Origin: a virus | Taxonomy: Duplodnaviria > Heunggongvirae > Uroviricota > Caudoviricetes | Length of the DNA: 10,598 bases | IMG/VR virus record: IMGVR_UViG_2695420487_000003 | Coordinates: 1-10,598 of that record | Direction: 5' to 3' (one strand) | Shown: piece by piece, positions 3,900 through 10,598 of the stretch | How positions within the stretch are numbered: the first letter of the stretch is position 1 | How the letters are laid out: each line of letters opens with the position of its first letter | Position numbers and translations under genes: made by a program | Notes under the pieces: generated by a model | The model's database searches: none | Seen by the model: only the letters and a program-made list of their open reading frames with translations | What the model was told of the DNA's origin: nothing

Positions 3900-5561
3900 T
3901 TATATGAAAAAAACCTCATACGCTTTCTTTTTCGGTTCCGGATTCAGGGACATCAGGGACACCGCATTGAAGAGCGCCATCAGCGGGTCAATTTTTCCCC
4001 GTCCGCTGGCCTGTTTGGTGATAAGAATGGCGTTACCTTTAGGCTCCCCCCGGGCATTGCCAACGCACCAGGCCATCAGTGGCTGACCACCATGCACCAG
4101 CACTCCCTCAGCCAGTTTGCGCTCGGTGGTTTTGATGGCCCCGCCCAGCTTCCAGCCCTGGCTTATCCCCACCACACTCTCATCGGGGATCCCGGCTTCC
4201 GCCAGTGAATCCAGAATCTGCCCCACACCTGACGGGGCAATACCGATATGGTCCAGTAACTCAGCCTCATGAATACGACGCACATACTCCGCCACTTCCG
4301 CCGTGTCATCCCCGACCCGACGGACAATCGTCATGTCTCCACAGGCCACAAAATCCTGAAACCGGGATGCCTCACTCTTCCGTCTGACCACCGCGGTTTC
4401 ATGCACCCAGGCATGGCCCCAGCCCAGCCATTCGCGGGTTTCCCTGTCACGGCCAGTCACGTACATTCCCAGCAGATCATCCAGGCCCCCGCCGTCAATC
4501 CCCACCGTCACCACATCAGCGCGCTGCAGGATATCGTCCAGGCTGACGCGCCTGCCCTGCTGCTCCCAGAAATCCGCGCCCGCCCAGCGGTCAGAACGCA
4601 GGGCAAGACCGATTTCCACATTGGCGTGTTTTGACATGAAGCCACGAAATGCTTCCTCACCAGCCTCCCGGGCTTTACGGTACTCCCGGTACAGAAAAGC
4701 CTCATCCACCGAATAACCGAGATTCGGGTTAACCATGGCGAGGTTTTCCATCAGCAGGTGAGCCCCGCTTTCCACCATTTCAGGAGGGTGTTCAAATATC
4801 ACCGGCAGAAAGTGCGGATCATGAATTTTGCCGTCACGGACATCCCGGGCGTACTGCAGTTTCTGTCTGAACACCCCGGCTGGCGGCTCATTCGACTGGG
4901 TGGTTGTGTACACCACAAATCCTTCCGGACGGGAGGCAAGCCCGCCGATGGCTTCACGTAGCATGTCTTCCGCTTTGTACTGCTTGCCAAACAGCCACAG
5001 TTCATCAATCAGTGTCCCCACGGACTTGATACCGGACACCGTATTCGGATCGGCTGCCACCACCTTCAGGGTGGTGTCCGTCACCCGATGGGTGATGGTC
5101 CGGATATGTGTCTGCACCTGACAGAGGTCATCCAGATCATCGTCCCGTCGCACCATATCCCTGGCAGGGTTGAAGGCGTTGGCCGCCACCTCCACGGTCG
5201 GGGCCAGAATGGTGTAGCCCGCCGCCTGCCGCCAGTTCAGTAACAGCGCCGTCATCATGATCCCCGCGGCCAGCGTGGACTTACTGTTTTTCTTGGGGAT
5301 AAGGATAAACACTTCCTTGATATGGCGTACACCGGTCTGCGCATCATAGGAGCCAAACAGGGCCGCCACCAGGTCAAACACCCACGGTGCGCAGGACTCC
5401 CCGAACGTCGGGCTACCCGGTGCATCCACAATCCGCAGTTGTTTAAAAATCGCCAGGGCATGTGCAGCCTGGTCCGGATAAATCGGAGCCGGAATAATCG
5501 ACAGTCCCTTTTGCAGGCGCTCTGCCCAGTCCGGACATGCCGTGCTCCATACAGGTATCAT
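3900..5561 (-). CDS. terL: terminase large subunit (Terminase_1 / COG4626-like)
   Basis: 553-aa ORF. ATG at 5561 overlaps the terS stop (ATGA). Deviant Walker-A-like ILIPKKNSKST; C-terminal GKIDPLMALFNAVSLM typical of the nuclease end of this terminase family. Lies directly downstream of a small-terminase gene. Confidence 0.85.
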   Translation of the reverse strand: MIPVWSTACPDWAERLQKGLSIIPAPIYPDQAAHALAIFKQLRIVDAPGSPTFGESCAPWVFDLVAALFGSYDAQTGVRHIKEVFILIPKKNSKSTLAAGIMMTALLLNWRQAAGYTILAPTVEVAANAFNPARDMVRRDDDLDDLCQVQTHIRTITHRVTDTTLKVVAADPNTVSGIKSVGTLIDELWLFGKQYKAEDMLREAIGGLASRPEGFVVYTTTQSNEPPAGVFRQKLQYARDVRDGKIHDPHFLPVIFEHPPEMVESGAHLLMENLAMVNPNLGYSVDEAFLYREYRKAREAGEEAFRGFMSKHANVEIGLALRSDRWAGADFWEQQGRRVSLDDILQRADVVTVGIDGGGLDDLLGMYVTGRDRETREWLGWGHAWVHETAVVRRKSEASRFQDFVACGDMTIVRRVGDDTAEVAEYVRRIHEAELLDHIGIAPSGVGQILDSLAEAGIPDESVVGISQGWKLGGAIKTTERKLAEGVLVHGGQPLMAWCVGNARGEPKGNAILITKQASGRGKIDPLMALFNAVSLMSLNPEPKKKAYEVFFI

Positions 5562-8412: not shown

Positions 8413-8906
8413 TGTTGCCCCCACAAACAGACTTCACGCTCAATCTCACGGCGAGTCATCAGCCCTTTCCATTGCTTACCGCCAGCGTATGTCCAGCGCC
8501 GTAGCTGATCACATGCGCCTTTGATATCGCCCTGGTTTATTTTGCGAAGAAGCGTCGATGTTCTGAAATTGCCAGCGCCCACGTTGTAAACGAACGAGTA
8601 AAGAGCGCCGCGCGTTGTTTCCGGTATATCGACTTTGATGTACGGGTTTATTTGTCTGGCGACCGTGGCAAGGTCTTTATTCAGGAGGGCTTTGCATTCT
8701 GCTTCGGTATACGTTTTACCGGGCATGATGTCTTTTCCGGTGTGTCCATGACATACAGTCCATACGCCAACGATATCTTCGTATGGTATGTAGCTGACAC
8801 CTTCCAGGCCATCGTCACCACTCGGACCAGTGATGAGCACAGACGCTATGGCAACAGCCCCACCACCAATAGCAGCAGCAACGGCTTTTCGTAATGATGG
8901 AGGCAT
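8409..8906 (-). CDS. R: SAR endolysin (phage-21 R / lysozyme, signal-anchor-release type)
   Basis: 165 aa. N-terminal Gly/Ala-rich weakly hydrophobic SAR segment [30 protein letters not shown]. Catalytic E35-x8-D44-x5-T50 spacing in [17 protein letters not shown]. Resembles the R21 / DLP12 RrrD lysozyme family. Start overlaps the holin stop (TAATG). Confidence 0.9.
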
Positions 8907-9112
8907 TATTCACCTCTCGCAGCCTTGCGCTTATCTTCTTTAATCTTGAAATAAAGGTTTGTCAGATACGTCAGCAGGCCAAACAGCAGACTCCCCAGCA
9001 CACCGATTGCCACCCACTGGGACGGAGAGACTTTGTCCAGCAGCTGCAGTAACCAGTATCCCGTCCCCACCGCTGACGTGGTGTATGACACACCCGTTGT
9101 GATTTTTTCCAT
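8906..9112 (-). CDS. S: class II holin (pinholin, phage-21 S-like)
   Basis: 68 aa from the ATG at 9112: [68 protein letters not shown]. Two transmembrane segments and a charged C-terminus. Paired with a SAR endolysin, which is the pinholin signature. The track's GTG-initiated 23-codon extension is rejected. Confidence 0.85.
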
Positions 9113-9367
9113 CTGATGTATGTCTCCGTCACCGCCGACAGAAAATGAAAGTAAAGGAAAACAAAAAGCCGCCAGTGTCACCCACTGACGGCCAACTCCG
9201 GGAGCCGTGATTATGGCATTCAGGCTCTGCTAAAAATGCCAGATAACATTCCGACCAACCCCTGATTCAGGTTATAAATGACACAATATCTTGACAACAT
9301 CCGTCACTGTCTGTCAGAAAATGTACTGCCAGATATAAGTATCATGTGAAACCCAACTATCCTTCTT

Positions 9368-9410
9368 AGCCAGTACTTCTCCGACGAAAGTCAGTACTGG
9401 CTGTTTTTTT
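9368..9410 (+). terminator. Rho-independent-terminator-like hairpin plus T7 tract, functional orientation on the plus strand
   Basis: 10-bp perfect stem agccagtact (9368-9377) / agtactggct (9393-9402), inner gac-GAAA-gtc GNRA tetraloop, followed by gttttttt (9403-9410). On the minus strand the hairpin is followed by AAGAAGG, so it is not a canonical terminator for the late operon. Confidence 0.4.
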
Positions 9411-9411
9411 A

Positions 9412-10598
9412 TTATGCTGCCGGTGCATTTATCTCCAGCACCAGACTTTCTATCTCAACGCCATACGCTGCATTTTTTGTAACATCCGTCAGCGTCAGCA
9501 CATTCAGTCCCAGTGTCAGACTGTCTTTTATAACCTGGAATGCCGGGCCAGCCACTCCATTCAGTTTCGGAGTAACCGTGGCACTGCCGGCGGTGAACAC
9601 CAGCTCCAGCGTCTGCCAGTCGTTACCGTAATCGCCGAACTCCCCCAGCTTCGTGTTTCCGGCTTTCCTGTGATGCATCAGATTCACTCTGCCGTCAGTG
9701 GTCTGAGTGAAGTACGACATCAGGAACGGATTACCGGTACCCGTCATCGCCACACCATCAGGAACGGGAGCATCCGTATACAGATAAATCCCCAGCCCGA
9801 ACTGATTGTTGGTCAGTGCGCCTGACAGGCGGAACTTACAGTTCAGTCTGCCGCCCTGTGTCAGCAGGGTAATTGCGTCATCCACCGGATGCGTCAGGGA
9901 CCAGGNNNNNNNNNGACAACTGAATTCCGCCATCCTTAATGCTCCAGCCCTGCGCAGCAGCCTCTCCGGCTGCCGGCAGCAGGGAGATTGTGCGAACGGA
10001 CGTATCTGCAGACGGACCCGATGGCGTGTTGCCGCCGGGCGAGGGTTTGATTTCCGGTGCCTTACCACTGATGAAGGCTGAGGTGCGCCCGGCTGCGTTC
10101 AGAATAGCGGTTGCCAGACGATCCGGAATAATGCTCCTGCGCGCCCATGAACTGAAATGTGTCGGGCGGTTTGATGATACCTGGTTTCCATTCGTTCTCG
10201 ATGCCGCACCGTAATATCCTGATGCCGGAATATCCGGATCTTCTGCCGGCGCGTTAGTGGCGGTATTGACGCCGTTACCGTCTGTCATGAAGGGCACAAA
10301 ATAAACGCCCTCACTCTCCCTGTTTTTATACCCGCCGTACACGGTGTCGTACTGGGTAGCGTATGTATTTTTCCAGTAATACGTCGTGTCACCACAAATC
10401 CACGGCACATTTACAGCACTGCCACCATGACACTGCGCGTTAAACACAGTGAGGTCAGCACGAAACTGCTTCAGCATGGCTGTAAACAGCGCAGGTTGCT
10501 GTGCGTAGGTGGCGGCGCTCATGTCAAACTCTCCCTGCATCCAGCACACCGCCAGCAACACATTTTTCGGGTTCTTCTGTAATGCAGCTTTAGTGCGC
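9412..10598 (-). CDS. large esterase-like late-region protein, probably NanS-p-type sialate O-acetylesterase; partial (N-terminus beyond right edge) and broken by an assembly gap
   Basis: Track ORFs 9878..10561 and 9412..10068 are one gene whose frame changes across the N-run at 9906-9914. The upstream frame remains open to 10598 (RTKAALQKNPKNVLLAVCWMQGEFD...). Stop TAA at 9412-9414. Sits immediately upstream of holin S, where lambdoid/Stx prophages carry the nanS-p (yjhS-like) gene. Family call is from context and memory, not a search. Confidence 0.5.
9906..9914. other. run of 9 N (assembly or scaffold gap)
   Basis: Literal nnnnnnnnn in the sequence; the reading frame of the enclosing gene differs on the two sides, so the true gap length is probably not 9. 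Confidence 0.95.

Follow-up and report, generated by a model that had tools for sequence, protein, structure and literature searches.

A plus-strand terminator hairpin in the esterase-holin spacer of a Stx-phage-like prophage and its relation to the PasA/PasC small RNAs

The esterase-holin spacer and its two terminators

The DNA analysed here, a stretch of 10,598 nucleotides that is called the window throughout, is the late region of a lambdoid, Stx-phage-like E. coli prophage in which nearly all the genes are on the minus strand, in the order SASA esterase, a spacer of 299 bp, class II holin S, lysozyme RrrD, Rz, Rha, terminase, capsid and portal. In the spacer, right next to the esterase stop codon, there is a hairpin followed by a run of T that has the form of an intrinsic terminator for transcription on the plus strand, and the closest plus-strand gene, a ylcI/ynfO homologue, is about 2.3 kb off. 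The question that this locus raises is what transcript such a terminator serves. The features of the spacer and its two flanks are the following.

9412 to 10598, minus strand: 3' part of the SASA-family 9-O-acetyl sialic acid esterase gene (ORF list and the annotation of a 98%-identical prophage in NZ_CP148357)
9412 to 9414, minus strand: esterase stop codon
9404 to 9410, plus strand: U7 tail, the termination point and presumed Hfq-binding 3' end (read directly from the sequence; the major 3' end of PasA is at the last T of the same run)
9367 to 9403, plus strand: terminator hairpin with an outer stem of 10-11 bp and an inner GAC-GAAA-GUC helix (fold energy and covariation)
9157 to 9193, minus strand: late-strand intrinsic terminator with an 11-bp stem that has 7 G-C pairs, GGCCGUCAGUGGGUGACACUGGCGGC, and then UUUUUGUUUU
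8906 to 9112, minus strand: class II holin S gene, with its ATG at 9112 (ORF list and NZ_CP148357 annotation)

The spacer extends from 9113 to 9411. An earlier note on this DNA had described it as a 300-bp spacer with no credible ORF, and the second part of this description was confirmed, as no ORF of at least 27 aa was found in it and the longest plus-strand ATG frame has 23 aa, the maximum given before. Its true length, however, is 299 bp and the holin ATG is at 9112; position 9182 is merely the end of a GTG-extended ORF and not the holin start. In the hairpin, AGCCAGTACT (9368-9377) pairs perfectly with AGTACTGGCT (9393-9402) to give an outer stem of 10 bp, to which RNAfold adds the pair U9367-G9403, and the inner helix is made by GAC (9383-9385) and GTC (9390-9392) on either side of a GAAA loop. 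Past the stem come G9403, the T7 run (9404-9410), an A and the esterase stop codon, and the T-run ends 1-2 nt short of that stop. The stem, the inner helix and the T7 run described earlier are all present at these positions. The segment 9340-9411 has a fold energy of -18.7 kcal/mol compared to -8.8 +/- 2.4 for shuffled sequences (z = -4.2), and none of 200 shuffles equalled it; the earlier note had raised the case of a fold too weak to form, and at this energy the fold is not too weak. A simple terminator scan missed the hairpin because its apical region is larger than the 8-nt loop limit of that scan.

The element that faces the late transcript is not this plus-strand hairpin but the terminator at 9193..9157, which is 45 nt upstream of the S start codon and lies in a segment, 9150-9205, that folds with -22.6 kcal/mol. 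It is kept in all four spacers that were aligned and is an annotated terminator in the phage 434 record. Because of it, the lysis genes probably need Q antitermination even when the esterase/moron region is transcribed alone. The curated phage 434 record has three terminators in the homologous spacer, and two of these are antisense to the late genes.

Homology to the PasA and PasC loci

Small RNAs antisense to the late genes have been described in homologous spacers; the family was found in 2014 as EcOnc51/52, named in 2021 (PasA and PasC) and surveyed in 2026. Hfq cross-linking in O157:H7 Sakai gave the peaks EcOnc51 in prophage Sp12 (2237479-2237555, plus strand) and EcOnc52 in Sp4 (1181998-1182075, minus strand) (Tree 2014, PMC4104026). 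In the Sakai regions that we fetched, EcOnc51 covers a PasA-type hairpin that is antisense to the Sp12 late genes, and EcOnc52 covers a second hairpin that adjoins the esterase stop. PasA was mapped to 743499-743415 on the minus strand of NC_011601, with a major form of 85 nt, and PasC to 1290909-1290832 of E2348/69 (Pearl Mizrahi 2021, Table S6, PMC8550237). In the same study a minor read-through form of PasA, 236 nt long, ends at 743264, exactly at the esterase stop, and the gene is flanked by the plus-strand esterase E2348C_0688 and holin E2348C_0689 in the arrangement '> < >'; the sizes of PasA and PasC were confirmed on northern blots, and in the activating condition both RNAs were lower in the hfq deletion, with log2 fold changes of -2.8 and -2.1, respectively (PMC8550237). 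The covered sections of a 2026 preprint (Zhu, Shabalina, Storz) locate pasA and pasC in Stx-type prophages, with the sialic acid esterase gene directly on one side and the holin-lysozyme genes on the other, name phage NC_011356 as a PasA carrier, give all Pas sRNAs a 3' stem-loop followed by poly-U and confine the PasA family to Escherichia and Shigella. Beyond the works cited here we found no further functional literature on PasA. Expression as an 85-nt RNA, loss in the hfq deletion, Hfq cross-linking and RIL-seq chimeras are thus data on homologues, and they would apply to the window by analogy.

When the spacers of the window, the PasA locus, the PasC locus and phage 434 were aligned, the plus strand of the window was found to be colinear with the PasA and PasC loci, and over about 140 bp upstream of the RNA the four sequences hardly differ. 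C9326 of the window corresponds to the mapped 5' end of PasC as well as to that of PasA, and the PasA 3' end falls on the last T, 9410. From this alignment two further features are defined.

9326 to 9410, plus strand: PasA-family sRNA gene, 85 nt, antisense to the late operon (gapless alignment and covariance model; the 5' end is taken from the RNA-seq/northern starts of E2348/69 PasA at 743499 and PasC at 1290909)
9291 to 9322, plus strand: candidate promoter, TTGACA (9291-9296) and GAAAAT (9317-9322), in a stretch identical to the PasA/PasC loci

The window RNA is identical to PasA at 70 of 85 positions (82%) without gaps, to PasC in 61 of 85 alignment columns (72%) and to the Sakai Sp12/EcOnc51 locus, the closest sequence, at 75 of 85 positions (88%). 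Its identity to phage NC_011356 (YYZ-2008) is 82.4% over 99% of the length. A covariance model made from 10 PasA/PasC variants, with the window left out, gave one match on the plus strand of the window, 9326-9409, which runs the full length of the model (positions 1-84 of 84) and scores 93.7 bits (E = 2.9e-19). Fig. S5 of the 2021 study (PMC8550237) shows a part of PasA, 5'-3' AAGUACAUCUAUCCUUUGAGCCAGCACCUCUCCACCGAAAGUCAGUGCU, that visibly matches window 9355-9398. The location is also that of the family, between the stop of a SASA esterase (9412) and the ATG of a class II holin (9112), and with the late genes on the minus strand and the homology and terminator on the plus strand the RNA would run antisense to them in the '> < >' arrangement.

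The 3' end of the RNA, a stem-loop of -18.7 kcal/mol followed by U7, also has the form given for the Pas sRNAs, and its outer stem covaries. Across 13 distinct family sequences 94.6% of the cells of the outer stem are paired, and of its ten pairs six are invariant and four are altered on both sides; the pair 9374/9396, for example, is C-G in PasA and U-A in the window, and the next pair alternates between A-U and G-C. This level of covariation was reached by none of 500 shuffles, and in slid controls the paired fraction fell to 22-55%. The inner GNRA-capped helix, on the other hand, is peculiar to the window allele, with 39% of cells paired in the family as a whole. Conservation of the hairpin, which the earlier note had proposed as a check, thus holds for the outer stem and not for the inner helix.

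The homology, the synteny and orientation, the stability and covariation of the hairpin and the identity of the promoter region with the PasA/PasC loci were all observed in the window. We conclude that the plus strand of 9326-9410 is very probably the gene of an 85-nt Hfq-dependent base-pairing sRNA of the PasA/PasC family, the family of EcOnc51/52 in O157 Sakai, and that the hairpin with T7 is the intrinsic terminator of this PasA/PasC-family gene, which runs against the late operon. By analogy with its homologues, the window variant would be expressed, use its seed and affect targets. An antisense or small RNA had been among the alternatives listed earlier, and the homology, the synteny and the covariance-model match support it. 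The earlier statement that no annotated gene needs a plus-strand terminator here is also correct, since PGAP annotates nothing at the position of the sRNA in any of the records examined and Rfam 15 has no family for PasA-type sRNAs; the point is one of annotation, in that a conserved sRNA gene looks like an orphan terminator in these prophage records.

Two other roles for the hairpin have to be weighed against these data. The hairpin could be purely a terminator or insulator that blocks the entry of antisense transcription into the esterase gene, with the released RNA having no function. The end of the terminator 1-2 nt before the esterase stop is what one would expect of an insulator, and PasA loci even have a second, back-up terminator, with the 236-nt read-through RNA ending exactly at the stop. 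However, an insulator would need no conserved promoter of its own 80 nt upstream, the conservation goes beyond the hairpin to the body of the RNA and its promoter region, and the homologues are made as abundant, Hfq-dependent RNAs of discrete size, with PasA ranking 12th and PasC 17th by interaction number in RIL-seq (PMC8550237). We regard this reading as very improbable. Alternatively, the inverted repeat could act on the minus strand, as a stem-loop that stabilises the 3' end of the esterase mRNA or as a processing site of the late polycistronic RNA. The reverse complement folds almost as well, with -18.0 kcal/mol, and begins 5 nt past the esterase stop. On the minus strand, however, the stem comes after A7 and is followed not by a U-run but by AAGAAGGA, and it is not a terminator of the late transcript; the conserved T7 has a meaning on the plus strand only, and the cross-linking of EcOnc51, which is on the plus strand in Sp12 where the late genes are on the minus strand, together with the mapping of PasA and PasC, puts the stable RNA antisense. 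That this is the role of the element is extremely unlikely, although some stabilisation of the esterase mRNA would be compatible with an sRNA gene on the other strand. Both roles had been suggested in the earlier note; they may occur as side effects of the sRNA gene, and given that gene neither of them is needed to explain the hairpin.

The start of the transcript is where the earlier account has to be changed. It had proposed a plus-strand promoter made of CTGTCA (9311-9316), a 17-nt spacer and TATAAG (9334-9339), with a transcript of about 60 nt that starts near 9346. The two hexamers are present in the sequence as described, but the 5' ends of the homologues, which correspond to 9326, are upstream of TATAAG and place this hexamer inside the RNA. 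In addition, PasA has TAGAAG in its place and the spacing in the paralogous module, described below, is 20 nt. The homologues are 85 and 79 nt long, and both the proposed promoter of the mature RNA and the 60-nt size are probably wrong. A better candidate is TTGACA with GAAAAT, although it is non-canonical in that its spacer is 19-20 nt (20 nt in the window). The mapped 5' ends of PasA and PasC are 4 nt downstream of GAAAAT, that of EcOnc52 is likewise just downstream, and the paralogous second module likewise has TTGACA, CTGTCTGT and GAAAA(T). A promoter scan of both strands of the spacer found no consensus sigma-70 promoter and did not call TTGACA/GAAAAT. According to the covered part of the 2026 preprint (Zhu, Shabalina, Storz), the mature 5' end of PasA may arise by cleavage of a longer transcript. 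In the mechanism that we propose, RNA polymerase would start inside the spacer at the gene's own promoter, transcribe about 85 nt against the Q-dependent late operon and be halted by the hairpin with its U7, 1-2 nt short of the esterase stop codon, so that the antisense transcript would stay out of the esterase gene. The hairpin and U-tail would then have a double role, as Rho-independent terminator and as presumed Hfq-binding 3' module.

Other RNA families were considered as well. AgvB and AsxR (Rfam RF02702 and RF02703) are likewise short Hfq-bound RNAs that lie antisense in the late/moron region of lambdoid Stx prophages, but they differ from the window RNA in size (51-60 nt) and in location (3' of PR' and 3' of stx2AB), and membership in either was rejected since a search of the whole window against Rfam with cmscan at E <= 1 matched neither AgvB nor AsxR, nor STnc100. 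A resemblance of 9332-9416 to the Bacillus RNA ncr982 is sub-threshold (28.5 bits, with a gathering score of 50), and a weak match to the archaeal C/D-box RNA sR44 at 4582-4625 on the minus strand, in the terminase large-subunit gene, is regarded as chance (22.5 bits, with a gathering score of 45, E = 0.048).

Locus types, tandem modules and distribution

PasA of E2348/69 (O127:H6, prophage PP2) is like the window RNA in its position in the spacer, in its antisense orientation, in its length of 85 nt with no indels between the two and in its terminator architecture with U7, and the 140 bp upstream are nearly identical. It differs from the window by 15 substitutions, among them the change of the seed from GCCAGCACCU in PasA to GCCAGUACUU in the window, and whereas in PasA loci the first module is followed by a paralogous one of about 147 bp and there is the 236-nt minor form, the window has a single module that abuts the esterase stop. 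The Sp12/EcOnc51 locus of O157:H7 Sakai has the 5' half of the window RNA, AUCAUGUGAAAyCCAACUAUCCUUCU, and an antisense Hfq peak, but unlike the window it has the unchanged seed and stem of PasA (GCCAGCAC/GUGCUGGC), and module 2 comes after them. It is probably the 'PasA-2' of the 2026 preprint, to judge from the description in the sections covered. PasC of E2348/69 prophage PP5 has, exactly like the window, one module with its terminator directly against the esterase stop, and its promoter region and first 25 nt are nearly identical to those of the window, but the RNA has 79 nt and its hairpin, GCCAGCGUCC/GGGCGCUGGC around an 8-nt loop, is a different and shorter one.

Loci that share a 41-nt word of the promoter region are of four types, namely PasA with the module 2 of about 147 bp, PasC alone, the window type, and PasA that has been cut. 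The window type, which stands alone, consists of the window and five IMG/VR contigs, and the fourth type is PasA with an insertion in the terminator 3' arm, like the PasA-3 of the preprint as described in its covered sections. Module 2 is a paralogue of module 1, with 82 of 105 bases identical (z = 8.7 compared to shuffles), and it carries its own TTGACA, CTGTCTGT and GAAAAAT blocks and a GCCAGCG...CGCTGGC-U7 hairpin. In an IMG/VR contig (L115) module 2 has the exact PasC hairpin, and because of this PasC looks as if a deletion had fused the 5' half of module 1 to a hairpin of the module 2 type. The window type in turn looks, from its sequence, like a module 1 from which module 2 was deleted at the T-run. 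The window allele is thus a variant of a known family, with an altered seed and without the tandem module 2.

As to the tandem arrangement itself, module 2 separates the PasA terminator from the esterase stop in E2348/69 PP2 (L002, 2765-2915, minus strand) and also in phage 434 (L001), Sakai Sp12 (L093) and Sakai Sp4 (L092), and it coincides with the EcOnc52 Hfq peak and with the 3' end of the 236-nt minor form of PasA. The 2026 preprint attributes multiple distal copies of pasA to superinfection and not to tandem duplication, and a tandem module is not mentioned in the sections covered.

Of 5426 complete E. coli genomes, 86 have the exact 86-nt window sequence (100% identical), and the carriers include O157:H7 PV15-279, O145:H28 RM13514 and O103:H2 FWSEC0007. 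In about 290 further genomes, which among those listed are mostly O157:H7, the match covers only nt 1-50 or nt 46-86. All three of the partial-match genomes that were inspected (FORC_044, O157:H7 Z570 and 53_142304; L089, L120 and L121) have IS1203/IS629 inside the terminator 5' arm, at the equivalent of about 9371-9375, and the window allele is therefore dispensable at least in these three IS1203-split genomes. Elsewhere, PasA is cut by another insertion in two loci (L042 and L084), and ISEc13 adjoins pasC in E2348/69, which suggests that the esterase-holin spacer is an insertion-sequence hot spot. No sequenced phage of the collection has the exact allele; the best is H-19B with 89%, and phages 434, YYZ-2008 (NC_011356) and the Stx1a phages have 82% identity to the window RNA. 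A search of species-representative genomes with an 18-mer, a pattern too short for a clean search, gave one true match, in Escherichia albertii, and 17 chance matches in unrelated phyla. This single true match agrees with the restriction of the family to Escherichia and Shigella given in the covered part of the preprint.

Seed and possible targets

The published seed of PasA is in the terminator 5' arm, and the homologous segment of the window and a candidate target site near it are as follows.

9369 to 9378, plus strand: putative seed GCCAGUACUU, in the terminator 5' arm (homologous to the published PasA seed GCCAGCACCU)
9434 to 9444, minus strand: CUGGUGCUGGA site in the esterase mRNA, within its final 11 codons, candidate target (identical to the E2348C_1246 site)

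In PasA the seed GCCAGCACCU is complementary to a CUG-N-UGCUGG motif that occurs in the RIL-seq partners (PMC8550237). The conserved PasA seed is absent from the window; GCCAGUACUU differs from it by two C-to-U changes, of which the one at 9374 is offset by a G-to-A change at 9396. PasC likewise differs at the seed (GCCAGCGUCC), and since its seed differs too, GCCAGCACCU defines strict PasA and not the wider family. Single-nucleotide changes are generally absent from the seeds according to the covered sections of the 2026 preprint (Zhu, Shabalina, Storz). The two altered positions may mean that the target range is different or that the allele is drifting.

The allele could also be a decaying pseudogene that makes no functional sRNA and has kept the hairpin by descent. 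The two substitutions in the published seed, the interruption of the same allele by IS1203 in the three genomes inspected and its absence in exact form from the sequenced phages of the collection all point in this direction. However, the promoter region is only two bases off that of the expressed PasC gene, the stem pair that went from C-G to U-A has changed on both sides and so stays paired, two pairs are added to the inner helix, and the same 86 nt are 100% identical in 86 complete genomes that belong to several serotypes (O157:H7, O145:H28 and O103:H2). Decay thus has a small chance of being the explanation of the window allele, and we return to the sRNA gene.

In such an RNA, as the homologues suggest, Hfq would bind the U-tail and hairpin and the 5' arm GCCAGUACUU would pair as seed with sites of the CUG-N-UGCUGG type in mRNAs. 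One such site is close at hand, since CUGGUGCUGGA at 9434-9444 is 24 nt beyond the terminator. In the published chimeras of PasA the 3' end of the esterase E2348C_1246, with 668, is at the top among the RIL-seq rows examined, and the neighbouring E2348C_0688 has 34 (PMC8550237). The predicted duplex of the window seed region with the CUGGUGCUGGA site has -15.7 kcal/mol compared to -16.9 kcal/mol for PasA, and both C-to-U changes still allow G-U pairs with it. By its sequence, the site at 9434-9444 is a likely base-pairing target. At the esterase-S junction, moreover, the sRNA has full complementarity to the Q-antiterminated late transcript. When RNAduplex was slid along the late transcript in search of trans sites, the duplexes were all long and loop-rich and none stood out clearly, and a full-length duplex fold of the sRNA was equally uninformative. 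The sRNA may act in trans on the convergent neighbour, the esterase, besides adjoining it.

It is conceivable that the seed-divergent allele is a functionally distinct sRNA whose targets have shifted and which, by way of its complementarity to the esterase-S junction and a partial site in the esterase 3' end, tunes the esterase or the lysis genes on prophage induction, but this seems rather unlikely. If it were true, a phenotype would be expected in O157:H7 where IS1203 disrupts the allele. The combination of an altered seed with a compensated stem possibly makes the window allele useful for tests of how seed changes affect targets in a horizontally acquired sRNA.

A minor observation concerns the late strand of the spacer. 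In the Sakai tables of Tree et al. (PMC4104026) there is no late-strand Hfq peak in the Sp12 spacer. The RIL-seq tables for E2348/69 (PMC8550237) have a late-strand fragment, 'pasA.E2348C_0689.IGR', at 743494-743512 on the plus strand of NC_011601, which corresponds to about 9313-9331 on the minus strand of the window, with 19 significant chimeras with PasB and totals of 798 in the non-activating condition. The fragment is a hint of an Hfq-bound RNA from the sense strand, for which the 9193..9157 terminator could provide the 3' end.
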